The translations under genes and the position numbers were made by a program. Below are positions 21,521 through 64,000 of a stretch of DNA of 64,000 bases, in pieces; position 1 is the first letter of the stretch; each line of letters starts with the position of its first letter. Origin of the DNA: Spirochaetota bacterium (GTDB taxonomy: Bacteria > Spirochaetota > Spirochaetia > Treponematales > UBA12059); contig JAPLSN010000029.1 in the NCBI GenBank assembly GCA_026398615.1, forward strand, positions 22,469-86,468, written 5' to 3'. The notes under the pieces are model-generated. The model searched no databases. It was not told the DNA's origin and worked only from the letters and a program-made list of their open reading frames with translations.

Positions 21521-22655
21521 GGCTCGTCTGGGGATAGAAGTCGAATACCTTCATCCAGTCGATCGAGTACCCGGAGCGCACCAGATCGCCGACGTCCCTC
21601 GCGCAGGTGACCGGATCGCAGGAGACGTAGGAAACGACGGGCGGCTTCGCCTCCCTGAACCACGAGCGAACGCGCTCGGACAGGCCCGAGCGGGGCGGGT
21701 CGCAGACCACGGCGTCGAAACGCGATTTCGCTGAATCCGAGGTTGTCCAGTCCTCGGCCGACTGGGCAAGGAATTCCCCGCGGCCGCCTGCGTTCATCCG
21801 TGCGTACTCCACGGCGAAGGGATCATGCTCGACGGCGGTGACCGATTCGAAGCTGTCCGCGAGGAAGGAGGCGAACGGTCCCACGCCGCAGTAGAGGTCA
21901 AGCGCGTGGCCGCCGCCGAGGTCGGAGGTCGCCGCCGCGACGAGGAGGTCGAAGAGGTAGAGGTTGCTCTGGAAAAAGCCCTTGACGTGGAAGCGCATCG
22001 GGCGGCCGCGGACCTGGGCCGTCACGTCGCCGTCCCGCCCCTCGATGAAAACCCGGTCGCCCGAACGCTCCGGCGAAAATACCATGAAACGTGCGCCGGG
22101 CTGGGTCCAGGGTGACATCGGGAGCCGGGATTTCCCGGAAGAAGCCATGCGCTCGATCCAGGTACGGATGGGCTCCACGGCCACGGGGCAGGTTTCCACG
22201 GGCTCGGGCAGGGACGACGAGCCCCGCATGAAACCGATCCGGCCTTCGTCGTCGACGTGGAACTGCATGCGGCTGCGGTATGCGTAGGGCACGGAGGCGA
22301 CGACGGAGAACCCTGGCGCGTCGACCTTGCCGACGCGTTTCCAGCTTTCCTCCACGATGGCGGCCTTGAGTTCGAGCTGTCTCCGGTAATCGACGTGCTG
22401 GAGGTTGCAGCCTCCGCAGGACCCGAAATAGGGACAGGCCGGGCCGATCCGGTCGGGTGAAGCTTCGAGGATCTCCAGCACGTTCCCACGGACCCAGTCC
22501 TTACGGTACTCTTCCAGCTCGACGAGGACCCGCTCGCCGGGGATCGTCATGGGCACGAACACGGCGATTCCGTCATTGAACGCGAGTCCGTCACCGCCTG
22601 CCACGAGTTTCTCTATTGTCAGCTCGACCGTAGTTCCCATGATCGGGCCCATCAT
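21483..22655 (-). CDS. 23S rRNA (uracil-C5)-methyltransferase, RumA/RlmD/TrmA family (TRAM, 4Fe-4S and MTase domains)
   Basis: TRAM N-terminus, Cys cluster CPYFGSCGGCNLQH, MTase motifs DLYCGVGPF and DPPRSG plus C-terminal catalytic Cys (VSYVSCDP). Start set at MMGPIMG; track M1 is further upstream. Confidence 0.8.
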   Translation of the reverse strand: MMGPIMGTTVELTIEKLVAGGDGLAFNDGIAVFVPMTIPGERVLVELEEYRKDWVRGNVLEILEASPDRIGPACPYFGSCGGCNLQHVDYRRQLELKAAIVEESWKRVGKVDAPGFSVVASVPYAYRSRMQFHVDDEGRIGFMRGSSSLPEPVETCPVAVEPIRTWIERMASSGKSRLPMSPWTQPGARFMVFSPERSGDRVFIEGRDGDVTAQVRGRPMRFHVKGFFQSNLYLFDLLVAAATSDLGGGHALDLYCGVGPFASFLADSFESVTAVEHDPFAVEYARMNAGGRGEFLAQSAEDWTTSDSAKSRFDAVVCDPPRSGLSERVRSWFREAKPPVVSYVSCDPVTCARDVGDLVRSGYSIDWMKVFDFYPQTSHVELCVRLVAGI

Positions 22656-48143: not shown

Positions 48144-48893
48144 TCACGCCCCGGACTCGCACCGGATTCCCCTCTCCGCGCAGAATCGCCTCACGAGCCC
48201 GGCGCGCTCCCGGTAAAACTCCTCGCGCCGGGCGTACTTCCCCGCCTCCGCGTTGTAGTTCCAGCCGCCGAAATAGATGCTGTCGACGAAACCCACGGCC
48301 CCGAGGATCTCCCCGAGATCCTGTTCGGCGAGGTTCGGCGTCGGGTAGGGCTCCATGTGGACGAGGGTCCTGCATCCCGCCTCATGGAGACGCTCGAGCG
48401 CCTCGATCCTTTCGGCATGGGGAGTCGCGCCCGGCTCCCATCGCCCGCGGAATTCCTCGGAAAGCGAGACGAGGCTGATCCCGTAGATATTGTCCTCCGG
48501 GAAACGGCCCCGGTCGGCGAGCTCGCCAGGCAGCTTACCCTTCGTGAGCACGGAAACCGGGATGCCCTTCGAGTTGATGAGGCCGATAAGCTTGAGGCTC
48601 ATCGCCGTCACCTCCGGCCACCCCGTCATGAAGGGATCGGTCGTGAGGCAGAGGTGGACGTACCCGGGCCTTTCCCTGAGTCGCCCGAGCTCCTTCGCGA
48701 GGAGCTCCGCCGCGTTCGCCACGAGCCTCGGGCGGCGCCAATCCCCGTAATCCCTGGCCCGGCCGTAGCTGCGCGCCATGGAGAAGGCATAGCAGGGGTA
48801 GAGGCAGCCATGGGAGCAGCCCTGCACGTGGTTGATGCAGAGGAAGCCGAGGGCGCTCCTGTTGAGCAGCGATTTACGCGTGATGGTTTCCAT
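48144..48893 (-). CDS. Radical SAM protein, SplB/DNA-repair-photolyase-like (COG1533-type)
   Basis: Cys motif INHVQGCSHGCLYPCYA resembles the SplB-family GCxHxCxYCYA cluster with one extra residue. Start set at METITRK; the track ORF begins 26 codons upstream. Confidence 0.65.
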   Translation of the reverse strand: METITRKSLLNRSALGFLCINHVQGCSHGCLYPCYAFSMARSYGRARDYGDWRRPRLVANAAELLAKELGRLRERPGYVHLCLTTDPFMTGWPEVTAMSLKLIGLINSKGIPVSVLTKGKLPGELADRGRFPEDNIYGISLVSLSEEFRGRWEPGATPHAERIEALERLHEAGCRTLVHMEPYPTPNLAEQDLGEILGAVGFVDSIYFGGWNYNAEAGKYARREEFYRERAGLVRRFCAERGIRCESGA

Positions 48894-49005
48894 TTTATTG
48901 TCCGGGGGAAGAACCCTTTCCTCGTGCCCGAAAGGGTTCCTCCCCCGGCCCCCCTCTTCCGAAAGACGCATACGGGAGGCTGAGCCCCAGTGGCTTCAAC
49001 GCCAT

Positions 49006-49149
49006 TTATCCCGTGAACAGAGACATCGCGATCTGCTTTGCGGAAACCGGAGATAAGCCCGCTTCATCTGCGATCCGATGGATCAACATAGGCAAGGCCC
49101 CCGTCTCGCCATCCCCCTCGACGATGGCGGCAATCCGGATTGGGCTCAT
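49006..49149 (-). pseudogene. Truncated Toprim-like (DUF4435/DUF4276/RloB-type) gene remnant, 47 codons, translationally coupled to the upstream ATPase
   Basis: ATG overlaps the ATPase stop (ATGA). MSPIRIAAIVEGDGETGALPMLIHRIADEAGL matches the Toprim beta1-E-G-x-x-E start of OLD/PARIS AriB-like partners, but a stop follows after 47 aa. Coordinates ±2. Confidence 0.4.
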
Positions 49150-50360
49150 CTCGCCTCTGTCCCGAATAAATCAAATTGCCGCGGGGGAAGACTCTCCATC
49201 ACTTTGGCATCGGGCCTGAGCTGCCCAAGCTTGAGAAGTTCGCCGGCCGTAAAAAGACGATCTTTGAGCGCGGAAATCCCGCAATCGTCGACGGGACCTA
49301 TCCTTGTTTCGCCGTCGATACTCTCGACCGCCAGAATATGCGAAGGGTCGAAATCATCATCGTCGAGGAGTTCCGGGCTGTGGCTCGTCACTATCACTTG
49401 CGTGGTTGTGGATGCCGAGTGAATAGCCGCACGAAGGATACCGGCGGCACCTGGGTGTATTGCGGTCTCTGGTTCCTCGATCCCTACGAGGGGAATACCC
49501 CTGGCGGCACTGCCGCCGTATTGCAAAAGCGCGGTCAGGATGCCGAGAACCCGCAGAGTGCCATCGGACATGTTCTCGGCGATGAACCGCCATGGAGCGG
49601 AGGTATTACCGACTTTCTGCCTGAATTGGATCGTCACCTTCCTCGACATGGGGACGATATCCACGTCCGAAATACCAGGTACAATGCGCGATAGATAGTC
49701 GACGATCGCCGAGAATGCATCGGGCTTCTCCCTTTTCAGGTACTCAAGAGAGGCAGCCAGATTGCGTCCGTCCCTTTTCAGTACCAATCCCGAATCCGGA
49801 GATTGAAGCTCGCGCATGGCGTCGGGGTTCAGGTTATAAAAACCCATGGTCGAAAGAGCGTCGAAGAGCGGACGAAACCCGGGGAGTCCGGCCGCAGCGA
49901 CGAGATAGAGTCTATCAATGGAGGCGGGCGGCATGATCGGCTCGCTAGAGCGTTCGATCGCACCAGCCTTGACCAGGTAAAAGGCATCCTCCACCCCTAA
50001 CGGACCGTGAATCATGCATCCTTCCTCGTCTACCGAACAGCCCCCATTCGCACGCGCTCCGATTTGGAAGGCGTAATAGCCATGAAGCTCCTCCGATAGC
50101 GAGAATTCCAGCCTGATGCCGAAGGAATTCGGATGGCCCGCCGACCTGCGACGAACCTCGTCTATGCCACCCCTATCCCTGAGCGCATGGTCAAGGCTTC
50201 CTGAGAGAGCTTCCGAGACGAAGCGCAAGGCATCCATAAAGTTGCTTTTGCCGGCTCCATTCGGCCCGACGAGGACGCTCAGCGGGCCGAGCGCGATAGC
50301 GCAGTGCGCGATGCTCTTGTAGTTACGCAATATCACCTTGCGAATGAATACGTTTGACAC
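49146..50360 (-). CDS. AAA_21/AAA_15-type ABC-like ATPase (OLD-family / PARIS AriA-like)
   Basis: N-terminal FIRKVILRNYKSIAHCAIALGPLSVLVGPNGAGKSNFMDALRFV (GxNGxGKSN Walker A); C-terminal LVGIEEPETAIHP and Walker B/D-loop-like TSHSPELLDDDDF. Likely GTG start (MSNVFIRKV) with a GGAAGG SD. About 50% GC. Confidence 0.75.
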   Translation of the reverse strand: MSNVFIRKVILRNYKSIAHCAIALGPLSVLVGPNGAGKSNFMDALRFVSEALSGSLDHALRDRGGIDEVRRRSAGHPNSFGIRLEFSLSEELHGYYAFQIGARANGGCSVDEEGCMIHGPLGVEDAFYLVKAGAIERSSEPIMPPASIDRLYLVAAAGLPGFRPLFDALSTMGFYNLNPDAMRELQSPDSGLVLKRDGRNLAASLEYLKREKPDAFSAIVDYLSRIVPGISDVDIVPMSRKVTIQFRQKVGNTSAPWRFIAENMSDGTLRVLGILTALLQYGGSAARGIPLVGIEEPETAIHPGAAGILRAAIHSASTTTQVIVTSHSPELLDDDDFDPSHILAVESIDGETRIGPVDDCGISALKDRLFTAGELLKLGQLRPDAKVMESLPPRQFDLFGTEAR

Positions 50361-50382
50361 AATCTGCCGCCTTCCACCAGAA

Positions 50383-50772
50383 CTAGATAATACTACAAAT
50401 TCGATTTCTCGATTCTTTTGCCTGAAGGCGGCACAGCCTCCAGCTGGATTTTCTCGGCCGCCCCGCCCCGGAAAACCCTGGCGCGGATGCTCGGCTCGAG
50501 CCGATCGGCCAACGCTCGCGCCTCGGCTGAAGGATCTGATAGCGCATGCAGATGAAGAAGACACTCGACTCTGTGATTTGACACCCATGAGAATCCAGAA
50601 TAATTCCGGACACTTCCGACATTGGAATAAACCCCGCGTCAATATCGTGCGGTGCAGATTTCTTTGGATTGCATTCGCATGACTCGCCCAGTATTGGCCC
50701 TTCCCACCCCTCCGGCAACTCCCTCTGCGTCTCCGCGCCTCCGCGTGAAATTCTTTCTTCTCTTTTTTTCAT
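50383..50772 (-). CDS. Hypothetical ORF B (129 aa) upstream of the ATPase; coding status doubtful
   Basis: Start overlaps the stop of ORF A (ATGA); ends 22 nt before the ATPase GTG. Composition only weakly protein-like. Confidence 0.25.
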   Translation of the reverse strand: MKKREERISRGGAETQRELPEGWEGPILGESCECNPKKSAPHDIDAGFIPMSEVSGIILDSHGCQITESSVFFICMRYQILQPRRERWPIGSSRASAPGFSGAGRPRKSSWRLCRLQAKESRNRICSII

Positions 50773-51002
50773 CCCGCCCTCTCCCCGAACAGAGGCCGCA
50801 GTTTTTCGACCGCCTGGCGCAGGTCGCCTGATGCACCGGCGTCGGGGAGGCGGGAGCAGCGGTCGGCGGCCTTCCAGAGAGCGCTGAGGGCCTCCCGATC
50901 GGCGAAGAGGAGGAGGCCGAGATCCCGCCTCGCGCCGTCCCGCGCGGTATGCCTCGTGCTCTTCCCTATCTTCCCTGACAGCTCATCGTAGATACTGATC
51001 AT
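50769..51002 (-). CDS. Hypothetical ORF A (77 aa), first ORF of the putative ATPase operon
   Basis: GGGGGAGGGGAGGG SD-like stretch before ATG; helical-looking C-terminal half (LSALWKAADRCSRLPDAG..LRQAVEKLRPLF). Confidence 0.3.
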   Translation of the reverse strand: MISIYDELSGKIGKSTRHTARDGARRDLGLLLFADREALSALWKAADRCSRLPDAGASGDLRQAVEKLRPLFGERAG

Positions 51003-51203
51003 GGCCCTCCCCTCCCCCGCTCGATCCGACCAGCCGCCTGCTTCCTTGTGGCGCCGTCAAGCATGATCCGCACATGGACGTCCCGGTCCTCTTCCTGGAA
51101 AAGTACGTTGTGTTGCAGCATTTCGTTCTTGCCCTTCCCCCAGAGCAACGTCATCTCCGCCGATGCGGTATCCGAAATTGTACAGGACCGCAAGCACACG
51201 TCG

Positions 51204-52190
51204 TTATTCACGGGACGCTGCTCGATTTCTTGCAGTCTTTTGGAACCGGCTCTTGGGATCGTCCCACCCCGGATTTCGGATGCCTTTGGGATCCACGAGA
51301 ATTACATGTTGCTTTCCGCCCGCGAGCAGCCACAGGATGAAGTCGGGATAAAAATTCCCTGCTTTGAAAAAGCCTATGCTGCGGCCCTTGCTCAGATTAC
51401 GCAGTAGATAGAGATCGCGTGTCTCGAAACATTCAGTGTTGCAGTCATGGAAAGATTTTATATCCTCAACGAAATGCCGCTCGCTTTTGCTGAGCGGGGC
51501 CAGACGAGCACTCATGGTATCCGGTGTGCCGGCTATTGCCAAGGATGAAGAGGCAAGGAGCTTGCGAAGGATAAACTGGATCAAGTGACGTTGGCGGCAG
51601 GGGATGGCGCAGATTTCCGGACGCTGAATGAAAGAGGAAATGGCTTCATAAAGCTTATGTTCATCATCGGTCGGCTGGAAAGGCCGAGTGATCGCATGGC
51701 GTTCGGTAAACCGGACATATTCGGTAACCTGCTTCCGCAGTGTCCGTTTACAGAATCCCGCCAGACGCCCTCGCAAGGCATTGATGTTGGCCCCCACTCC
51801 GGTAATTTGTGCCCGGAATGCAGCGAGATCATAATAAAGCTGTTCATCCATGAGCGTTGAAAGTCCGAACAGCTCCAGGAGAGAGTTCTGGAGCGGCGTT
51901 GCGGAAACAAGCGGCTTGCGGCTGTCTTCCGTTGCCCAACGAATGCCCTTCCCTACCTTTGTCGACGAAAGACCCCGTCCAGCCTTCAGCGCCTCCCGGT
52001 AAGGGTTTGAGTCCAGGGTGAATGTTGGAATATTGAACTTCTCTTCAAGCTCCAGAGCCCATTGCTTTCGTATCGAAGCCGGGCATATGACGAGCGGGCG
52101 GCGTTTGCGCTCCGCCCAATAGTATTTGGCGTGATACGGGGTCAATCTCATCGGGGCGCCTCTGATACCGTAGCACGGCAACTCTGCCAT
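51204..52190 (-). pseudogene. Degraded SNF2/DEAD-like helicase fused to a PD-(D/E)xK nuclease (restriction/defence-type) with the Walker A region deleted
   Basis: [10 protein letters not shown] (L.PYQ-like) runs directly into [20 protein letters not shown] (motif Ia/Ib) with no GxGKT. Motif III is [18 protein letters not shown]-terminal FYPDFILW...ILVDPKG is a PD-(D/E)xK core. 328 aa against >800 expected. About 50% GC. Confidence 0.6.
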
Positions 52191-53511: not shown

Positions 53512-54267
53512 ATGCGGTCTGCCCATCCTTCTCTCGCTCTCCCCATCCTGCTCGTTGTCCTGGCGGCCGCGGCGCCGCCTCTCTGGGGTGCGGATCCCTA
53601 CCTGTCCGTCTCGGTCGATGTGGGCATGGAAGGCGGCCCTGTCGCCATGGGCGTGGGTGGACCGCTCCGGGACTGGTACGGCTATTTCTATAATTTCTTC
53701 TCGGTCCCGATCCGCGTGGAGTGGTACCCCGGCCTCCCCTTGATTCTGAGCGGCGGAGCGACCGGGGTGATGAAGGGATTCGTTTTCAACACCGCCGGCC
53801 TGATCCCGGAGGCCGGAGTGGAGCTCATCCTGTACAATGACGACCTGATTACGCATTCCGTTGGCGTCCAGGGCCGGTGGTTCATGCTGGAGTACGACGT
53901 GATGTTGCTCGACGATGTGGGCGGTGATTACAGCTTCGATGACGTCCGGCATCAGGGGACCATCAACGACACGGAGTACAGGATCGGGTACTACTTCCGG
54001 ACCCTGCTGGACGGGAGCATGGACCAGCAGATCCGGGCGCATGCGGAGCTATCCTTCGAACGAAAGAACATCACGGACATCCAGGCCATCCGGACCGCTC
54101 CCAACACCTACAGTACGCCTGTTACCGTGGTCGACACGGCGGAAACCACCGGCTTCGTGGTCGGGTTCGGCGGTCTCATGAAAGTCATCGACTTCGACCT
54201 CGCTATCGGACGCGCGAAGGGGATGATGTGGATCAGCCTCAGAATGGGGATGGCCCTGATGCTGTGA
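53512..54267 (+). CDS. Secreted hypothetical protein, possible outer-membrane beta-barrel
   Basis: AAGGAGG SD before ATG 53512; signal peptide MRSAHPSLALPILLVVLAAAAPPLWGA; beta-rich with aromatic girdle-like residues. Track ORF starts upstream at 53356. Confidence 0.55.
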   Translation: MRSAHPSLALPILLVVLAAAAPPLWGADPYLSVSVDVGMEGGPVAMGVGGPLRDWYGYFYNFFSVPIRVEWYPGLPLILSGGATGVMKGFVFNTAGLIPEAGVELILYNDDLITHSVGVQGRWFMLEYDVMLLDDVGGDYSFDDVRHQGTINDTEYRIGYYFRTLLDGSMDQQIRAHAELSFERKNITDIQAIRTAPNTYSTPVTVVDTAETTGFVVGFGGLMKVIDFDLAIGRAKGMMWISLRMGMALML

Positions 54268-55683: not shown

Positions 55684-56598
55684 ATGACGTTGCGCACCCG
55701 GTTGCAGATGATCTTCGGAACGACGGTGCTCGTTTCGTTCGCGAGCGTGCTCGTCTTCGCGGCTCTCGGCATCCGGAAGGAGATGCGCAGCTCCCTCGAG
55801 ACGATAGCCACGGAAACCGCGGGCCGTTATGCGGCCGGAATCGACGCCAGGACCGGGGAAGCCCTGCTCACGGCCCGTACCGCCGCCCGGATATTTTCCA
55901 ACTTCGAGCGCTTCGCGACGACGGACCGCAGGAACACGATCGACGCCCAGGTGCGGTCGCTCCTGGAGCGGAACGGCAAGTTCACGTCCATCCGGGTTTT
56001 CTTCGAGCCCGACGCCCTCGACGGGCTGGATGCCCGGTACGCGGGAACGGAGCTCGGCAATGACGCCGGGCGTTTCGACATCGTCTGGCACAACGAGGGC
56101 GGCCTCGTCGAACGGGGCAGGTCCACCGAGGCCGCCCTTGTCGAAAGCGAACTCTATGCGACGGTGAAGAAGCTCTCCGTCGAAGTGGTGCTCGATCCCC
56201 GGGACTACGCCTACGGCACCGGTTCCCCCCTTCCCCGCGTGAGCGCGACGGCCCCGATACACGACATCTACGACACGTTCATCGGCGCGGTCAGCATCGA
56301 TCTGACCCTCACGGACTTCCAGGGCATCATCGACGAGGTGAGGCCCTTCGGAACCGGTTTCGCCGGGCTCTACACGAAAAACGGGTACATTCTCGCCCAC
56401 AGGGAACGTGCCCTGTTCTCGAAAAATTTCACAGACGAAGCCGCGCGCTACCTGCCGGAGGGCGCCGCCGTCCTCGCTGACGCCATCGCCGTGGCGGAGC
56501 AGGTGTCCGCCAAGCTCGTGAACGCGGCGACGAACCCTTCGTCTGATCGACGGAGGACCCGCGTCAGCCGAGTGTGTGGAAAAAAACGGTGGCGATGA
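55684..56598 (+). pseudogene. Chemoreceptor N-terminal fragment: TM1 plus a Cache-like periplasmic sensor domain, no TM2/HAMP/signalling domain
   Basis: MTLRTRLQMIFGTTVLVSFASVLVFAALG TM1, then a ~270-aa sensor domain; the ORF ends in unstructured SSDRRRTRVSRVCGKKRWR and overlaps the 3' end of the convergent ZIP gene. Confidence 0.5.
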
Positions 56599-57871
56599 AC
56601 CCGAGCACGGTGAAAAGCCCGACCATCCTGATGTTGCGCTCGTAGGCCTCCGGCAGCATGGTCTGCGCGGTCATGGCCAGCATGGAACCCGCCGCGAGCC
56701 CTTCGAAGAGGGAGTGCGCCGTGGGCGGAAGGATGCCGGAAATGAGGTTGCCGAGCAGTGCCCCGACTCCGACGGCGGCCACGAGGGAGATCCACATCCA
56801 GAGTATCCGGCCGGCCTTCGTGCCGGACTCCTTCATCATCGTGGAACTCGACAGGGATTCGGGCAGGTTGGCCATGAAGAGGCCGGCGATGAGGGCGGGG
56901 CTCGCGTTGAAACCCTGCATGCTTGCACCGATCACGAGGGATTCGGGGATGCCGTCCAGGAGAAGGCCGAGCCAGATGGCCGTCGCCGCCCCGGTCCGCC
57001 CCTCGCTCGCCGCGACCTTGATCTCGGTCTCGGTCAGGCGGTAGGCGCTCTCGTCGAGGTGGCGCGCGGCTTCCTTCACCCATTCCTCGCCGCTCAGGGC
57101 CGCGGCGGGGATCTTGCCGGTCCGGCCCCTGGCTGCGGCAAGCTCCGCCACAGCCGACTTGAGCTCGGGGCTCGACTCCGCCAGGAATTCGAAGTCCTCC
57201 CTGCGGACGACGTACGCGCGCGTGTCGCTCACGGGTATCGCGTCGGCGGCGCGGGGAGCGTTCCAGATGAGGGCCATCTCGCCGAAGGTCTCGCCCTCGC
57301 CGAGTTCCGCGACGAGGGAACGGCTCCCCTTGTCATCCGTGTACTCGATGCGCACGGCGCCGGTATCGATGATGTACATGGCATCGCCCGAGCCGCCCTG
57401 GAGGCAGACAGGAACGTCCTTGGGGAAGCTCCTGAGCTCGATGTAGGGGACGATCGCCTGTACCTGGTCGGCGGGCAGCGAGCGCAGGATGTCGACGTGA
57501 CCGAGTTTTTCGAGCAGTTCCTGGGCCGCGCGCTTCTTCTTCGTCCGCAAGACCGACAACAGGGTGGAACGCTTGCGCGCCCAGGCGCCGCTTTCGTCCG
57601 CCATGCGGGACAGCGCGATGAAGAGGAGGCAGCCCAAAAGCAGTCCCGCGGCGAGGGGGAGGAAGCCGGCGTCTTCCCGTTCCACCGCCGGGTTGACGAG
57701 TTCAAAGGAAATGGCAGCTATAAGCGAACCGGCGCCGAACGACATGACGGCGGAGATCACGGTCCTCGAAGGTTTTGTCCAGAGCCCGATGAGCGCCCCG
57801 ACGGGGAGCGACACCGAACTCAGGGCTCCGAAAAGGAGGGCTGCGAAAGCGGACGAACGGAAAAAATCCAT
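56564..57871 (-). CDS. ZIP-family (ZupT-like) metal transporter with a cyclic-nucleotide-binding (cNMP) domain in the central cytoplasmic loop
   Basis: ZIP TM helices at both ends (HSLFEGLAAG, HTLG); central CAP-family cNMP-binding domain (GDAMYIIDTGAVRIE... GEGETFGEMALI... AAD...TRAY). Start set at MDFFRSS. Confidence 0.75.
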   Translation of the reverse strand: MDFFRSSAFAALLFGALSSVSLPVGALIGLWTKPSRTVISAVMSFGAGSLIAAISFELVNPAVEREDAGFLPLAAGLLLGCLLFIALSRMADESGAWARKRSTLLSVLRTKKKRAAQELLEKLGHVDILRSLPADQVQAIVPYIELRSFPKDVPVCLQGGSGDAMYIIDTGAVRIEYTDDKGSRSLVAELGEGETFGEMALIWNAPRAADAIPVSDTRAYVVRREDFEFLAESSPELKSAVAELAAARGRTGKIPAAALSGEEWVKEAARHLDESAYRLTETEIKVAASEGRTGAATAIWLGLLLDGIPESLVIGASMQGFNASPALIAGLFMANLPESLSSSTMMKESGTKAGRILWMWISLVAAVGVGALLGNLISGILPPTAHSLFEGLAAGSMLAMTAQTMLPEAYERNIRMVGLFTVLGFIATVFFHTLG

Positions 57872-58058
57872 TACGGACCTCCGGGGTGCGGGGCTTTCGT
57901 CGAAGTATAGATCGACAACGCGTAAAAATCGAATCCGGGGCACCGGGCCGCAGGGAGTTCGGAACGGTGTCCGTGCGATTGGGATCGCCTGAGGCGGATC
58001 ATTTCAGTACATTCGAAACGGCGGGCCGCCGGATCGACGGACTCGCCGGAGGAACCAG

Positions 58059-58262
58059 ATGACCAGCAACATGGGAAAGATCGACCGCGTCATCCGCATC
58101 GTGCTCGCGGCCGCGTTCTTCACGCTCGTCGCCCTGGGCGTCGTACGGGGTCCGCTCGCATGGCTGCTCGGGGCGCTTGCCGTCGTGTTCGCCGCCACGA
58201 GCGTCGTGGCTTTCTGCCCGCTCTACCTGCCCTTCAAGTTCTCCACCAAGCCCAAGGCTTGA
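58059..58262 (+). CDS. DUF2892/YgaP-like small inner-membrane protein (67 aa)
   Basis: GKIDRVIRIVLAAAFFTLVALG...LLGALAVVFAATSVVAFCPLY: the two-TM DUF2892 signature with a conserved CP motif. Confidence 0.6.
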   Translation: MTSNMGKIDRVIRIVLAAAFFTLVALGVVRGPLAWLLGALAVVFAATSVVAFCPLYLPFKFSTKPKA

Positions 58263-58336
58263 AGCATGGCCGCCGCCGGAAAGGACTCGGCGGCGGTTTC
58301 ATTCCGACCATCGGGGTGAAACGGGCGGCCGCGGAC

Positions 58337-60136
58337 TCAAACCGTGAATTTGTCCGCTGCCAGCTTGACCTCTGAGACGAGCTCGCCGGTGCGCGAGCAC
58401 AGCTCCATGGTATTCGCGATCGCCTCGTTGATCTCCCTGGTGCCCTGGGATATCTCCTCGTTGTTCTGCACGACCATGATGTTGACGCTCCTGAGCCGTT
58501 CGACCTGGCGGAGGATCGAAGCGTTGCCCTGCTCCATTTTCGCGGAGCCGTCGGAAATGGATCCCGTGATTTCGCGAAGGCGGCCGAGCACATCGAGCAC
58601 GAGGCGGCCGCCGTCGCGCTGTTCGGCCATGGAAGCGCCGATGGATCCGATGGCATCGCCGAGAGACCCGGATTTTTCCAGTATGGACGTGAAGCTCTGG
58701 ACCGTCGCATCGGTCGCCTTCTTCACGGAATCGATGGCCTCGGCGACCTTTCCGAGGTCCCTCGAGATGTCCTTGGCCTGCTCGTTCGATTGGGTCGAGA
58801 GCTTCCCGATTTCGTCGGCGACCACGGCGAAGCCCCTGCCCGCCTCGCCGGCGTGCGCGGCCTCGATGGCCGCGTTCATCGCAAGCAGGTTGGTGCGATC
58901 CGCGATGCCCGTGATGACTTCCACGGCCGCGTTCAGGTTTTCCGAGTACTGCACGATCGAGGATACGGCGGCCATGACGTCGTTGATCTTGGATGTGCCC
59001 TGGGATCCTTCCTCGATCAGCAAATTCGACGCTGACGCCGCGCCCTCGGCGCTAGACGCGACCGAATCGACGTTGGCGATCATCTCCTCCACGGCGGCCG
59101 AGGAATCGGCGATCATGGCCGACTGGCTGGAGATCAGGGAAGTGAGGGAATCGACGCTCCCGACGAGCCTGTCCATGGCGGATGACACTTCCGCGACAGC
59201 TTCCGATTGCTCCCCGAGCTGGCCTTTCGTGCTCTGTATGTTCGTATTGATCTGGACGACGGCCGCTCCCGTCTCCTCCATGTTCGACGACAGGCCGTTC
59301 GTCGTTTCCTCGAGGGCGCTTATCCGTTCCTTGACGGTTTGGACGAGACCGCGAAGGTCGACGACCAGGTCGTCCACGGAGGAGGAAATTTTTCCGATCT
59401 CGTCCTTCGCCTTCGATCCCACGGCCATGGTGAGATCCCCGTCTCCCGCCTTTTCCAATGCTCCGACGAGGACCCCGATCGGCTTGGAGATCGAACGGAC
59501 CGTGAGGATCACGAAACCGATCACGAAAATGAAGACGAGTGAGGAAACGATCGCGAGCGTCCGGATCGCGTCCGAACTCGCGGAAGTCGCCAGGGACGCC
59601 GACTCGTCCGCTTTCGCCTTCATGGATTCATCGAGCTTGAGGAGCACGGCGGCCAGGGCATTGAACCGTATCCGGGCTATGGACATGAGCGTGGTGGATT
59701 GCACGGATCCCGTCCGGAATTCGGAAACGGCCTTCGTGGCGGCCTCGGAGAAAGCCTGGTACCCCTTTTCGGTGTCCGAGAGGATGTCGCGCGTTTCCTC
59801 GTCGGTTTCCATGTCCGTGAACCGGGAAAGCTCGGTCGTGCTCCGCGAGAGGGATTCCTCGAAGTTCTGGATCGCACCCGTGACGTATGTCGAACCGGTG
59901 ATGGCTTCCGCCTGCACCTGGTAGAGGTCGACGAGGCTGGTGTAGACGAGGGCGTGGAATGCCGCCGTCTTGACGAGGAGCTCCGAACTGGAGCCCTGGA
60001 ACCGTATGGAAAAATTGAGGTCGCCGAAGGATTTGTATGCGATCAGGAAATTTCCCGAGAATGCGATTACGACGACGAAAGCGAGAAGGGATAGCTTGGC
60101 GAAAATACTCAGCCTGTTCAGGAACGGAACACCCAT
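58337..60136 (-). CDS. Methyl-accepting chemotaxis protein (TM1, periplasmic 4-helix-bundle sensor, TM2, HAMP, MA domain)
   Basis: MA-domain signature [28 protein letters not shown] and methylation-helix heptads; GGGGG SD before MGVPFLNRL (60136). Track ORF starts 40 codons upstream. Confidence 0.85.
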
Positions 60137-60263
60137 TGAACCCCCGGGATTTGATGGCATATCGCCGATCATCCCGGAAAACATTATTGCACTACTTCCG
60201 GGCAAGTCAAGCCGGTAAAGATCGCCCTTGGGTATCGCGTCATGCTTCCGGACCATCGCAGCC

Positions 60264-60393
60264 TCATTGCACGGGGAAGCCGAATTTCACGATCAGGTTG
60301 TCCCGGTCCACCGTCGGATGCTGGACGTTCTTCGTGAGCTCCGGCACGCGCGCAGTAACGTACGCCCGCAGCTCCGTCGTGTCCGCGATACCG
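60264..60393 (-). CDS. Displaced 3' terminal segment of the WD40-caspase gene ([42 protein letters not shown]-stop)
   Basis: Encodes the canonical caspase-domain C-terminal tail (DG.IT..EL..YV...V.....Q.P). Its first 34 nt are a perfect copy of 61210-61243, where the main gene body breaks off. Confidence 0.6.
60360..60393. repeat. 34-bp perfect direct repeat, copy 1 (GTACGCCCGCAGCTCCGTCGTGTCCGCGATACCG)
   Basis: Identical to 61210-61243; the two copies flank the ~0.82-kb insert. Confidence 0.8.
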
Positions 60394-60662
60394 CCCCTGG
60401 TCCCGCAGTACCATTCCGCCAAAGCGCCCGAACAGCAGGTAATTGCCGTCTTGTGAAATTGCCAGGGCTGATTCAAATTTGGTTGCCACGAGCGGTTGGC
60501 CGCTCGAAACATCCCACTTCATGAGCAAATCGTCCAGGGACAGAGAGACGATGGATTCCTTTTCCAATGAATACGCGACATTGAATAAGATGGAAACGGC
60601 GGGGGCCGGCTGCGCCGCCCGGGCGATGTGCGTCGAACCGGTCCGGGCCGGCGCTAAAAAAT

Positions 60663-61199
60663 TCACTTGTTGAATATTTCCCGTGCCTTCATCCATCCTT
60701 TCTGCGGGAAGGAAAAGCCCAGCTCGATCGCGAAGCTGTGGACGACGTCCGCATATCCCGTGTAGGGGTTGGTGCCGGGGAAGATGTTGTAGCCGAGGTA
60801 CGGGCGGAAGTACATCGACTTCGACATCCTGACGTACAGCGAAAGGCCGGTCGTTGCGACCATCGTGGATCCGTTGGGACCGCTGAAGAGGCCGAGGCGG
60901 ACGTCCCAGTCGATCGGCAGACCCTTGACGACGCCGAACCTGCCGGCGAAAACGCCCTGGACGATCGGGCAGACGGTGAAATCGGGATCGGTCAGGAAGT
61001 ACAGGCCGCCGGTCGCGCCCACGCCCAGCCAGTTGTACCGCCCGCCCCCGATCGGAATGGCCCAGGGGAAGACGAGGACGTCGACCGAGGGACCCGTCAT
61101 GAAGCCGGGGATTTCCGTTATGAGGTAGGCGTTGACGGAGGCGGGCGCGTCGAGCGCGTGCACGGCCCCGGCGCTGCAGATGACGGCGAGCGAGAGCAT
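60663..61199 (-). CDS. Secreted 8-strand beta-barrel-like outer-membrane protein (OmpA-TM/OmpW-like, PF13505-type) encoded inside the insert
   Basis: Signal peptide MLSLAVICSAGAVHA-LD; eight amphipathic beta-strand-like segments (YLITEIPG, VDVLVFPWAI, RYNWLGVGATGGLYFL, ...VVHSFAIELGFSF); 178 aa. ATG lies 10 nt from repeat copy 2. Confidence 0.55.
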   Translation of the reverse strand: MLSLAVICSAGAVHALDAPASVNAYLITEIPGFMTGPSVDVLVFPWAIPIGGGRYNWLGVGATGGLYFLTDPDFTVCPIVQGVFAGRFGVVKGLPIDWDVRLGLFSGPNGSTMVATTGLSLYVRMSKSMYFRPYLGYNIFPGTNPYTGYADVVHSFAIELGFSFPQKGWMKAREIFNK

Positions 61200-61209
61200 T
61201 ATCGACCTG

Positions 61210-61243
61210 GTACGCCCGCAGCTCCGTCGTGTCCGCGATACCG
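61210..61243. repeat. 34-bp perfect direct repeat, copy 2
   Basis: Identical to 60360-60393; encodes [11 protein letters not shown] in the caspase reading frame. Confidence 0.8.
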
Positions 61244-64000
61244 TCGCCGTTCGCGTCGGCGGCGGGCGACGAGAGCGCGGCAAGGACCGCCTCGGTGAAC
61301 GCCCCGTTCCGCAGCTCGTCCAGTTCGTACGACAGTTCGCCGCCCCTGCAGCTCGAGAACACGATGGCCCCGGAGCGCCGCACCAGGTCGTTGTAGATGT
61401 AGCGCCCCTGGTCCCGCAGGGCTTCCGTCACCGCCGCGCTTTTCTTCCCGAGCGTGATCCCGCTCCGCGTCGTCCTGGCCCGGACGCCCTTGCCTCCCGC
61501 GGATGCCGCCGCGACGAGCGCGCCGCCGTCCGCCTCCCCCGACTCGCAGGTGTCCATGAGGAAGAGCTTCTTCCTCGGCCCGATGCCCTGGAGGAGATCC
61601 TCGACGAGGTCGAAGTCCGCCGCCGTCTGCGCCAGGTTCGACAGGTCCGCGTCGTGCGTGAGGAAATAGTAGGTCGACTCCCTGTCGGTATCGTGGAGCC
61701 CGTGGCCCGAGATCGCGAGCACGAAGACGTCGTCCGGGCGGGCGTTCGCAAGGAGGGTTTTCGCCTTCCTGATGGCGGATGGCGTCACCTCGTCGTCCGT
61801 GCGGCTCGTCGCGTACACCTTGCGGAAGCCCTTCCCTTCCATCGCCTGGAAACGCGACTTGAGGTCGAGGATGTCCTGCGCCGCCCAATCAAGGTCGAAA
61901 TCGGGGTTTCGGTACTTCGACACGCCGAAGCCGATGAAGTACAGGTCGGGCTGCGTTTCGCCGTCCCAACCCAGATAGGCAGGGACGCGGAAGCTCTCCG
62001 CGCCGCCTGAGTCCATGCAGGACGCTTCGATCTTGTTGTCGCCCGAGCCCAGCTCGACGCGTTCCCTGGCGCTTGCCTGGCTGCCGCCCACCGGTTTGCC
62101 GAACGCGCCGAAAAGCGGCACGTCGTTGACCCAGACCTGGTATCGCGCGAGCGGTTTCCCGTTGGCGGTGAAACGCAATTCGAGATCGGCGAACTTGCCG
62201 TCCTGTTTGCCCGCGGTGATCTCGGCCTTCGGGACGCGCCAGTCCGCCGTCAGGTCGGCTTCCGTGAGACCGAGGCGGCGGAGGCGCTTCAGGTACCGGT
62301 CGCGGTAATGCCGGATGAGCGCGGCGTCTGTGCTCCCGAGGCGTTCGAGGATGATGTCGGGACGGTTGTTCCGCGCGGCGAACTGGTCGATGTTCCAGGT
62401 TTCAAGGCCACTGACCATCGCGACGAGCTCGCCGCAATCTGGGGAGCCGTCCCAGAAGCCGTCGTCGGTATAGACGAGCCACCGACGGCCGTCTTCGTCG
62501 GCCACGAACGCAACCCATGCCCCGGAAGACAAGTCCCACAGCCGGATGCTCCCGTCGCCGGACGACGAGAGCGCCGTTTCCCCGTCCCCCGAGAAGGAAA
62601 GCGAGGTAACCCGCCCGGAATGGCCGGAAAGCTGCCGCACCGCACGGCCGGAGGCGAGATCCCACAGCACGATGGTTCCGCGCCCGGAACCGGAAAGGGC
62701 TCGCGTGCCGTCCCGGGAAACGGCGAGGGATTCGATGCCGGCGTCCGGGGAAGAAAGCGATACGACGAGTCGGCCGTCCCGGAGGTCGCGGAATTCGACA
62801 TGCCCGTCCGAATGCCCCGTGAGCGCCCGGAGCCCGTCGGGCGACAGCACCGCGGTCGTCACGTCCGCCCGGGGATAGTCCAGCGTGGTCGAGACGACGC
62901 CGGTGTCGGGGTCGAACAGGCCGAGCGCGTCGCGCCTGGCCGCCATGACCGTCCTGCCGTCCGGCGCGTACGCCACGGAGTCGAAGGCGACCGCCAGCTT
63001 GACTTCCGTCGACGAGCCGACCGACGGCGCATGGACCGTGCCGGCGGTGGGTTGCGCGCTCTCGTCGGAGTACCACGCGAGCAACGCGCCGCTTCGCGTG
63101 TCGAAAAACTTGATCTTCCCGTCGGAACCGCACACGACGAGCGCATTCCCGTCCGGGGACAGGGCTGCCGAGTGGATCCAGGAATTGACGAGTTTCTCGT
63201 AGGCGGTGTCGGGCAGGGCGGCGATGAGCGGATCCAGGAAGCCGAAGACGTCGCCGGTTTCCAGGTTCCACAGGCGGTATTCGCCGTAGTCCGCCACGGA
63301 GTAGACGCGCCCTCCGCCCGGGAAGAAGCCGACTTCCTGCACGACGCAATCGTTGTCCGTGTTGACCTTCGACAGGCTGCAGGCCGAACGGTCCCATACC
63401 TTGACCGCCTCGTCCATGCCGCCCGAGACCATCCGGTCGTCCGCCGGGGAGAATGCCGCCGAGTTGACGCTGGTGGACGCGGTATCGAGATTCGCCGTCC
63501 GCGACCCGCTCCCGATGTCCCACACGCCCAGGTCCCCGAAACCGGAACTGATCGACGCCAGCCTCCCGTCGGCGGAAACCGCGGCGGCGTGGACGTTCAT
63601 GCCGACTGCCTTTATCTCGCGGAGGACCTTCCCCGTCTGGAGATCGAAAATCCGCAGCGAATCGCCTTCGAAGGACGACGAGACCAGCAGGCTGGAGGGC
63701 GGCACGACGGCGAGCGTGTTGACGAACGAGGCGTAGCCGTCGAAGACGAAGAGCTCCTTGCCGGAATCGACCGCCCAGGTTTTCACCGTCCTGTCCGACG
63801 AGCCGCTGAATACGACCTTGCCGTTCGTGGAGAGCGCCAGAGACGTTATCGACTTTCCATGGCCGGCGAAGCTCCCGGTTTCCGTTCCCGTCGCGGGATC
63901 CCACAGCTTCAGCTCGCCGTTCCCGGAGCCGGAGACGATGCCCGAACCGTCCGGCAGCCAGACCGCTGCGTTGACGCCGCCCCTGTTGCCCTGGAAATCC
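61210..64000 (-). CDS. WD40-repeat / caspase-domain (peptidase C14) protein, 5' part runs off the window; interrupted ~30 codons before its stop by the 0.82-kb insert
   Basis: Several WD40 repeats (LWDLASGRAVRQLSGHSGRVTSLSFSGDGETALSSSGDGSIRLWDL etc.) continue in frame to the window end (...SDRTVKTWAV...). Caspase His/Cys dyad VLAISGHGL and LFLMDTCESG. Track ORF 60184..63786 reads through the insert only because high GC avoids stops. Confidence 0.7.

Follow-up and report, generated by a model that had tools for sequence, protein, structure and literature searches.

When a WD40-caspase gene is found broken between two perfect 34-nucleotide (nt) direct repeats, has an excisable element been caught inside it, or has the gene been damaged in another way? 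Such a locus lies on contig JAPLSN010000029.1 of the Spirochaetota bacterium assembly GCA_026398615.1, in the 64,000-nt stretch from position 22,469 to 86,468 of the forward strand. This whole stretch was analysed and is referred to as the window, and all coordinates are those of the window. The broken gene, termed gene A, is on the minus strand and is followed by a gene for a predicted small outer-membrane β-barrel protein, by what appears to be the relic of a second WD40-caspase copy, and by the gene of a methyl-accepting chemotaxis protein (MCP). We read the window as a deletion allele of a locus with an inferred fuller allele, termed Form 1, and assign this reading a probability of roughly 0.6. 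Most likely, the locus reflects ordinary gene-family decay, and not an inserted or programmed element.

The repeat and the caspase gene

The 34-nt sequence GTACGCCCGCAGCTCCGTCGTGTCCGCGATACCG is present at 60360-60393 and 61210-61243, with 0 mismatches in either copy. It has no other match in the window with up to three mismatches tolerated, and the chance expectation obtained from 100 shuffles is 0 matches. The two copies are 850 nt apart, and thus 816 nt lie between them. When the minus-strand segments 63786..61210 and 60359..60264 are joined, the result is an in-frame sequence of 2673 nt whose product has 890 amino acids (aa). Pfam Peptidase_C14 covers residues 621-884 of this product, corresponding to profile positions 8-231 of 233. 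Hence, precise in silico removal at the direct repeats restores an intact open reading frame (ORF) with a full Peptidase_C14 domain. Both the perfect repeat and the rebuilt gene had been described in an earlier, sequence-only reading of the window, and both were reproduced here. The 31 residues after the repeat make up the conserved C-terminus of the family (ELRxYV...) in an alignment with 12 homologues (46-58% identical), and include invariant P, V, D, D, and N columns. No terminal inverted repeats were found at 60394/61209, and an exact scan for the 34-mer in public genome contig and metagenome contig collections gave no match.

Gene A encodes a caspase with both catalytic motifs. Specifically, its Peptidase_C14 domain has the His motif ISGHG and the Cys motif DTCESG, and the invariant H88/G89 and C140 columns of the homologue alignment are kept. 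The Pfam scores are 48.7 bits for PF00656 against a cutoff of 21.4, and 109.7 bits for WD40. In the assembled window, the caspase lacks its last 31 residues, including the invariant P-V-D-D-N columns. Its frame continues out of frame via stop-poor high-GC DNA to 60184, whereby ~340 out-of-frame residues replace the conserved C-terminus while the catalytic His and Cys motifs remain. The resulting mechanical 1200-aa ORF (60184-63786) is an artefact of the deletion proposed below plus stop-poor high-GC DNA. At ~65% GC, many long ORFs across the window overlap real genes in other frames, and a long ORF by itself is therefore no sign of a gene.

A probable fuller allele in a sister run

We compared the window with Logan contigs from sister runs, namely L001 and L003 from SRR20698649 and L004 from SRR20698648. 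Logan contigs derive from a de Bruijn graph with k=31, and no 31-mer is found twice within one accession (PMC12424806). For this reason, contigs stop where the graph branches, and neighbouring contigs have 30 nt in common. L001 is 1057 nt long. From position 211 to 1057 it matches window 61210-60364 with 100% identity over 847 nt, a stretch that contains the 816 nt plus 30 nt from repeat copy 2. The preceding part of L001 departs from the window sequence. Its positions 1-93 are a second caspase tail with a stop codon, termed tail A, which is 90% identical to window 60355-60263. Tail A is followed by a 107-nt spacer ending in AAGGAGG, and then by ATG AAA ACC GCC AGG TCG ATA ATG (MKTARSIMLSL). 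The claim of a 0.82-kb insert in an intact gene is thus not upheld, as the sister dataset has the same 847 nt behind another caspase tail, a stop codon, and a spacer.

L001 and L003 open with an identical 30 nt (window 60355-60326) and part ways at the next base, where L003 follows the window tail and the MCP gene with 15954 of 15955 positions matching. L001 terminates with the first 30 nt of the 34-mer. L004 starts at the first base of repeat copy 2 and is identical to the window at 13924 of 13924 positions. The near-identity of L003 and L004 to the window places them in the same population. The sole difference between the window and L003 (15,955 nt) is at position 53994, with G in the window and A in the contig. 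With one mismatch in L003 and none in L004, the runs are nearly clonal, yet they are structurally different at the caspase locus. The graph signature of SRR20698649 is body-S-tail A...fragment-S-tail B, where S is a 68-nt segment composed of the 34-mer, GTTA, and a 30-mer. The simplest linear path through this graph leads from the caspase body via S, the rest of tail A, the spacer, the barrel gene, the WD40 fragment, a second S, and the rest of tail B to the MCP gene.

Form 1 was rebuilt as the gene A body, GTTA, and L001. In the rebuilt form, gene A is intact with 890 aa, and the two copies of the 68-nt repeat are 1065 nt apart. The window differs from it by one 215-nt gap with breakpoints GCGTAC/GTTACTG on the left and AAACCGC/CAGGTCG on the right (the slash marks the break). 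The gap covers the last 31 codons and the stop codon of the caspase, the spacer, and 11 nt of the barrel gene. Across the novel junction, the window reads caspase body, 34-mer, and CAGGTCGATAATG. The features of the locus, in minus-strand order, are as follows.

61244..63786, minus strand: body of gene A upstream of repeat copy 1, with WD40 propeller, linker, and Peptidase_C14
61403..61419, minus strand: source of the 17-mer, within the live caspase domain (ALRDQGRY)
61210..61243, minus strand: repeat copy 1, 34 nt, encoding 11 residues; read as the remnant of the 68-nt segment S 5′ of the deletion breakpoint
61209..61210, no strand: putative deletion junction, GCGTAC/CAGGTCG; 215 nt missing relative to the allele inferred from L001; microhomology of 1 nt (C)
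60663..61209, minus strand: barrel gene, 5′-truncated; intact form of 185 aa (P0001); predicted small outer-membrane β-barrel
60409..60662, minus strand: putative decayed WD40-blade relic and spacer after the barrel gene; G+C content at third codon positions (GC3) of 0.667 in the WD40 frame
60392..60408, minus strand: 17-nt caspase copy (LRDQG-R), identical to 61403-61419, with a 2-nt overlap (CG) with repeat copy 2
60360..60393, minus strand: repeat copy 2, 34 nt; start of the 68-nt segment S (60326-60393) in the putative relic; L004 begins exactly at 60393
60264..60359, minus strand: putative relic tail, termed tail B, 31 codons and stop; last 63 nt 86% identical to tail A of L001 (9 differences)

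Read along the minus strand, Form 1 would begin with gene A, complete with tail A and a stop codon. The 107-nt spacer, which includes a ribosome-binding site, would lead to an intact outer-membrane barrel gene (185 aa), then to the dead relic of a second WD40-caspase copy (a decayed WD40 blade, the 17-nt and 68-nt pieces, and tail B), and finally to the promoter and gene of the MCP. A single non-homologous (illegitimate) deletion of 215 nt with 1 nt of microhomology would then have occurred in one population allele, starting directly after the first 34 nt of S and ending 11 nt into the barrel gene. Gene A would from then on read out of frame through the barrel gene. As the upstream 34 nt of S would have survived and the relic holds the other copy, the outcome would be an apparent perfect 34-bp direct repeat. 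Judging from their lesions, the caspase gene and the barrel gene are most likely both non-functional in the window allele.

The public protein collections have no record, by exact look-up, of the 178-aa ORF of the barrel gene, the 1200-aa read-through ORF, or an ORF of 170 aa that spans the relic. The out-of-frame read-through translation, used as a protein query, gave no match either, not even to the partial ORF of L001 itself. Products cut by contig ends are thus evidently not indexed, and for this reason the lack of near-identical caspase matches in the protein search is uninformative.

The barrel gene bears on how the junction arose. The window ORF 60663-61199 has one match among 5.8 billion proteins, which is P0001 on L001 (185 aa, 100% identical). 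The intact allele starts 7 codons upstream of the window ORF, at MKTARSI-MLSL, with DNA not contained in the window; the window copy lacks ATGAAAACCGC as well as the AAGGAGG ribosome-binding site. All 12 of 12 relatives start with Met, most of them with MK, followed by a hydrophobic signal peptide. The upstream start on L001 and the starts of the relatives together indicate that three parts are missing from the window copy: the genuine start, the charged end of the signal peptide, and the ribosome-binding site. Hence, the complete 178-aa secreted barrel gene described earlier does exist as a barrel-like ORF but is not complete. Since the 816 nt cut off the start and ribosome-binding site of a gene whose intact start is present on the sister contig, the event that created the junction is taken to be the 215-nt deletion.

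A HMMER search of 1.84 billion cluster representatives placed 13 representatives in the barrel family (P0111-P0123). Twelve of these are 167-192 aa long and one is an outlier of 1313 aa, with a typical length of ~175 aa. The family has no match to Pfam or to PDB sequences, and a scan of the metagenome contig collection found no relatives of the protein. The AlphaFold (AF2) model from the 13-sequence alignment has a predicted local distance difference test (pLDDT) score of 87 and a predicted template modelling (pTM) score of 0.76, compared with a pLDDT of 33 from the single sequence. In the model, a signal helix is accompanied by nine strand elements according to DSSP. Two of these are short and adjacent, and we take the total to be eight barrel strands. 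An N-terminal signal peptide is present, and the mature length is ~160 aa. The best Foldseek matches are NspA, OmpA, OprF, Ail, OmpX, PagL, and OmpW with a probability of 1.0, although at a template modelling (TM) score of only ~0.5. The OmpA-TM/OmpW-type fold expected by the sequence-only reading is thus borne out as a prediction, and the protein belongs to a rare unannotated family with a predicted 8-stranded outer-membrane barrel fold. The GC3 of the barrel gene is 0.883, close to the 0.877 of gene A. Its codon usage is therefore host-like, and a foreign origin was rejected on the same ground. Barrel relatives are not adjacent to caspase genes, and no conserved barrel-caspase linkage was found in the relatives examined.

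We then inspected the DNA around repeat copy 2. The 17-mer CTGCGGGACCAGGGGCG (60408-60392) has only two sites in the window, where 0 are expected by chance. The preceding tract, 60409-60662, has 56% GC overall and a minimum of 51% in a 120-nt window. It is WD40-like by Pfam (E 0.011-0.04), and by tblastn it matches the WD40 blades of related WD40-caspase genes, with a best E of 3.6e-5 in 0.7 Mb; the WD40-like fragment noticed earlier is therefore real. A blade of gene A was rejected as its donor, the best match being only 36% over 28 aa. Measured against gene A, 161 nt are missing from the relic at the point where the 17-mer meets the 34-mer, and the frame of the relic is thus shifted. Tail B has a GC3 of 0.81, which is coding-like, and differs from tail A at 3 of 29 comparable residues. 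The WD40 blade, the LRDQG 17-mer, and the 34-mer with its tail are on the same strand and collinear with a full-length gene. This arrangement fits a heavily deleted second WD40-caspase copy, which may descend from a tandem paralogue. The tail after repeat copy 2 had been taken as the native one, which is not established, as it sits in this relic together with a displaced 17-nt caspase piece and a frameshift. Among the four options offered earlier, a relic of recombination between paralogous WD40 genes comes closest; paralogy is retained, and the event that produced the junction is now read as a deletion.

Related loci point to a turnover of such copies. The closest genome locus is L005 (CAYZZW010000001.1) in a Treponemataceae metagenome-assembled genome (MAG), with a caspase domain 72% identical to that of gene A. 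Its orthologous caspase gene is intact and has a gene for a cyclic nucleotide monophosphate (cNMP)-binding/Zip protein directly 3′ (77% aa identity to that of the window), with neither a barrel gene nor a relic between the two. Relative to L005, window 56564-63786 has an extra ~3.4 kb made up of the barrel gene, the relic, the MCP gene, and a YgaP-like gene, and the cNMP-binding/Zip gene of the window lies beyond the MCP gene. The same Treponemataceae MAG has at least three WD40-caspase paralogues (L005, L006, and L007).

Tandem WD40-caspase paralogues on the same strand occur in four related loci (L008, L020, L030, and L061). Three loci have orphan caspase tails with no caspase domain in front, ending for example in ...VDRDNIYQKFGFPVK*. 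These tails, at 1180-1227 of L008, 1425-1487 of L016, and 316-417 of L045 (for example GGLTVDRDNIYQKFGFPVK*), are located just 5′ of WD40-caspase genes in unrelated MAGs, and are preceded by same-frame stop codons. They are probably the leftovers of deleted tandem paralogues. With tandem paralogues and orphan tails both present in relatives, decay in place suffices as an explanation.

Alternatives to the proposed deletion

Several points weigh against reading the window as a deletion allele of Form 1. No contig spans the link between the gene A body and tail A; their physical joining, which Form 1 supposes, is drawn from graph topology and parsimony. A joined gene accompanied by a 1.07-kb circle or tandem array would account for the graph just as well, although this is biologically less likely. 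L004 runs unbroken from the 34-mer into tail B. A well-covered population with the window-type allele alone would not give such a contig, and the window junction thus lacks independent confirmation. L004 has an incoming branch at the 34-mer and no retained outgoing branch; low-coverage branches are pruned, and L004 therefore neither confirms nor excludes the window junction in SRR20698648. The divergence between the relic and the live gene is not evenly spread, as the copies of S have 0 differences in 68 nt, yet the next 63 nt have 9. Identity beside such divergence calls for gene conversion or a recent origin, not simple decay of an old paralogue. Furthermore, comparison with the orthologue L005 leaves the native tail undecided, with 3 sites favouring tail A and 2 favouring tail B in a codon-by-codon reading.

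Besides gene conversion, the uneven divergence could be explained if tail B is native. In that case a paralogous segment of ~1 kb, comprising the rest of tail A, the spacer, the barrel gene, the WD40 relic, the 17-mer, and S, would have entered via S, and the 215-nt deletion would have come later, giving the same final arrangement by a different route. A single crossover in S or homology-facilitated illegitimate recombination could bring the segment in, and would create the 68-nt direct repeats. The full identity of S beside the 9 differences agrees with such an entry, as do the coding-like GC3 of tail B, unlike that of the WD40 relic, the 2-nt microhomology at the relic junctions, and the absence of both barrel gene and relic from L005. 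However, no donor locus was found in the window or in public collections, the barrel gene is host-like in codon usage, and the tandem paralogues and orphan tails of relatives make decay in place sufficient. We consider entry of a segment unlikely.

The 816 nt could also be an excisable interruption or an ON/OFF switch operating through the 34-nt repeats in the manner of skin and nifD. Precise deletion does restore the in-frame 890-aa gene with a full caspase domain, the sister runs do hold two structural alleles, and the joined form is compatible with the de Bruijn graph. A length of 34 nt is near the minimum for RecA-dependent recombination. In principle, the two 34-nt copies could recombine homologously and so yield an intact caspase gene that ends in tail B, but such a form was not observed. 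No recombinase is on board, in agreement with the sequence-only reading; none is present in the 816 nt, whose sole ORF with relatives is the barrel gene, and the Pfam families recorded on the MCP side, over ~16 kb, include none either. Together with the absence of terminal inverted repeats, this tells against the skin/nifD-type element that had been among the options. Moreover, the end of the 816 nt truncates the barrel gene, the alternative allele seen is 215 nt longer and not insert-less, and the 215-nt difference has no flanking repeat and is thus not reversible. An excisable interruption or switch is improbable.

It is quite improbable that the window contig is an assembly or library artefact joining sequences that are contiguous in no cell. 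The window-specific junction is absent from both Logan assemblies, a window-type allele alone would not be expected to give the unbroken L004 contig across the 34-mer, and 34 nt equals k+1 at k=33, a common assembler setting. However, the 34-mer-induced chimera considered earlier is excluded for the only novel junction, 61210/61209, where the source sequences have 1 nt in common and a k-mer graph needs reads containing the junction. The remaining junctions are on independent contigs, with fragment-34-mer on L001 and 34-mer-tail B on L004.

A bolder proposal is a recombinase-free switch, in which the identical segment, which measures 68 nt in Form 1 but 34 nt in the window, would flip the locus among three states: caspase and barrel on, both off as in the window, and caspase on with the barrel gene deleted. 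If true, a WD40-caspase gene, which is a candidate for a role in cell death or signalling, and the gene of a surface protein would undergo phase variation without a recombinase; we hold this to be highly improbable. Insertion of an insertion sequence (IS) or miniature inverted-repeat transposable element (MITE) was rejected, as there are no inverted repeats, the repeat is 34 nt and not 2-14 nt, and the 64-kb window has no second copy.

Surroundings and known systems

Beyond tail B, the 639-aa MCP ORF (58337-60256) probably starts later than listed. A promoter-like site, TTGACT-16-TG-AATAAT with 10 of 12 matches, is located at 60210-60183 within the listed ORF, and an internal Met (MGVPFLNRL) near 60136 has GGGGG before it and the first transmembrane segment after it. 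With the later start, 60137-60263 would be intergenic, at ~50% GC. Farther away on the minus strand, ~48144-52190 has Pfam matches to an SNF2-related family (weak), an AAA_15/AAA_21/SMC_N ATPase (404 aa), and Radical_SAM, with tiny ORFs between them. This cluster could be a defence-type island.

For annotation, the caspase and barrel genes of this genome are to be flagged as disrupted. For method, a deletion beside a paralogue relic can mimic a perfect direct repeat around an insert, and short public contigs from sister samples can expose a fuller allele. For biology, the locus is only one further case of how quickly the multi-copy WD40-caspase genes of spirochaetes turn over, and it points to a small unannotated family of predicted outer-membrane barrels.

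The protein of the window is like the barrels of NspA, the OmpA N-domain, OmpX, Ail, PagL, and OmpW in its predicted fold. Different from these known small 8-stranded barrels, its family has no sequence match to any Pfam family or PDB chain.

The locus as a whole resembles three known arrangements to different extents. As in the Bacillus sigK skin element and the Anabaena nifD, fdxN, and hupL elements, a gene is interrupted, direct repeats are at the ends, and removal restores the frame. Elements of the skin/nifD type range in size from kilobases to tens of kilobases, encode a site-specific recombinase of their own, and have core repeats of a few to ~20 nt. In contrast, the tract here is 816 nt without a recombinase, has a truncated passenger gene, and has a longer alternative allele. 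The orphan C-terminal modules found downstream of the Rhs/CdiA polymorphic toxin genes share the layout of a main gene with its own end, a small gene, and a displaced 3′ fragment, which starts identical to the main gene and could recombine with it. However, the two tails here differ at only 3 of 29 residues and neither is a toxin domain, while the small gene encodes a predicted outer-membrane barrel and not an immunity protein, and barrel relatives are unlinked to caspases.

The birth-and-death turnover of tandem paralogues, with its partial pseudogene relics, gene conversion tracts, and small illegitimate deletions, is alike in three respects: a live gene and the relic next to it have a short identical segment, the relic has internal deletions with 1-2 nt of microhomology and a frameshift, and relatives have tandem paralogues and orphan tails. 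Different from the usual course, the live gene here would have lost its own 3′ end in one population allele, and the relic beside it by chance offers an in-frame replacement tail.

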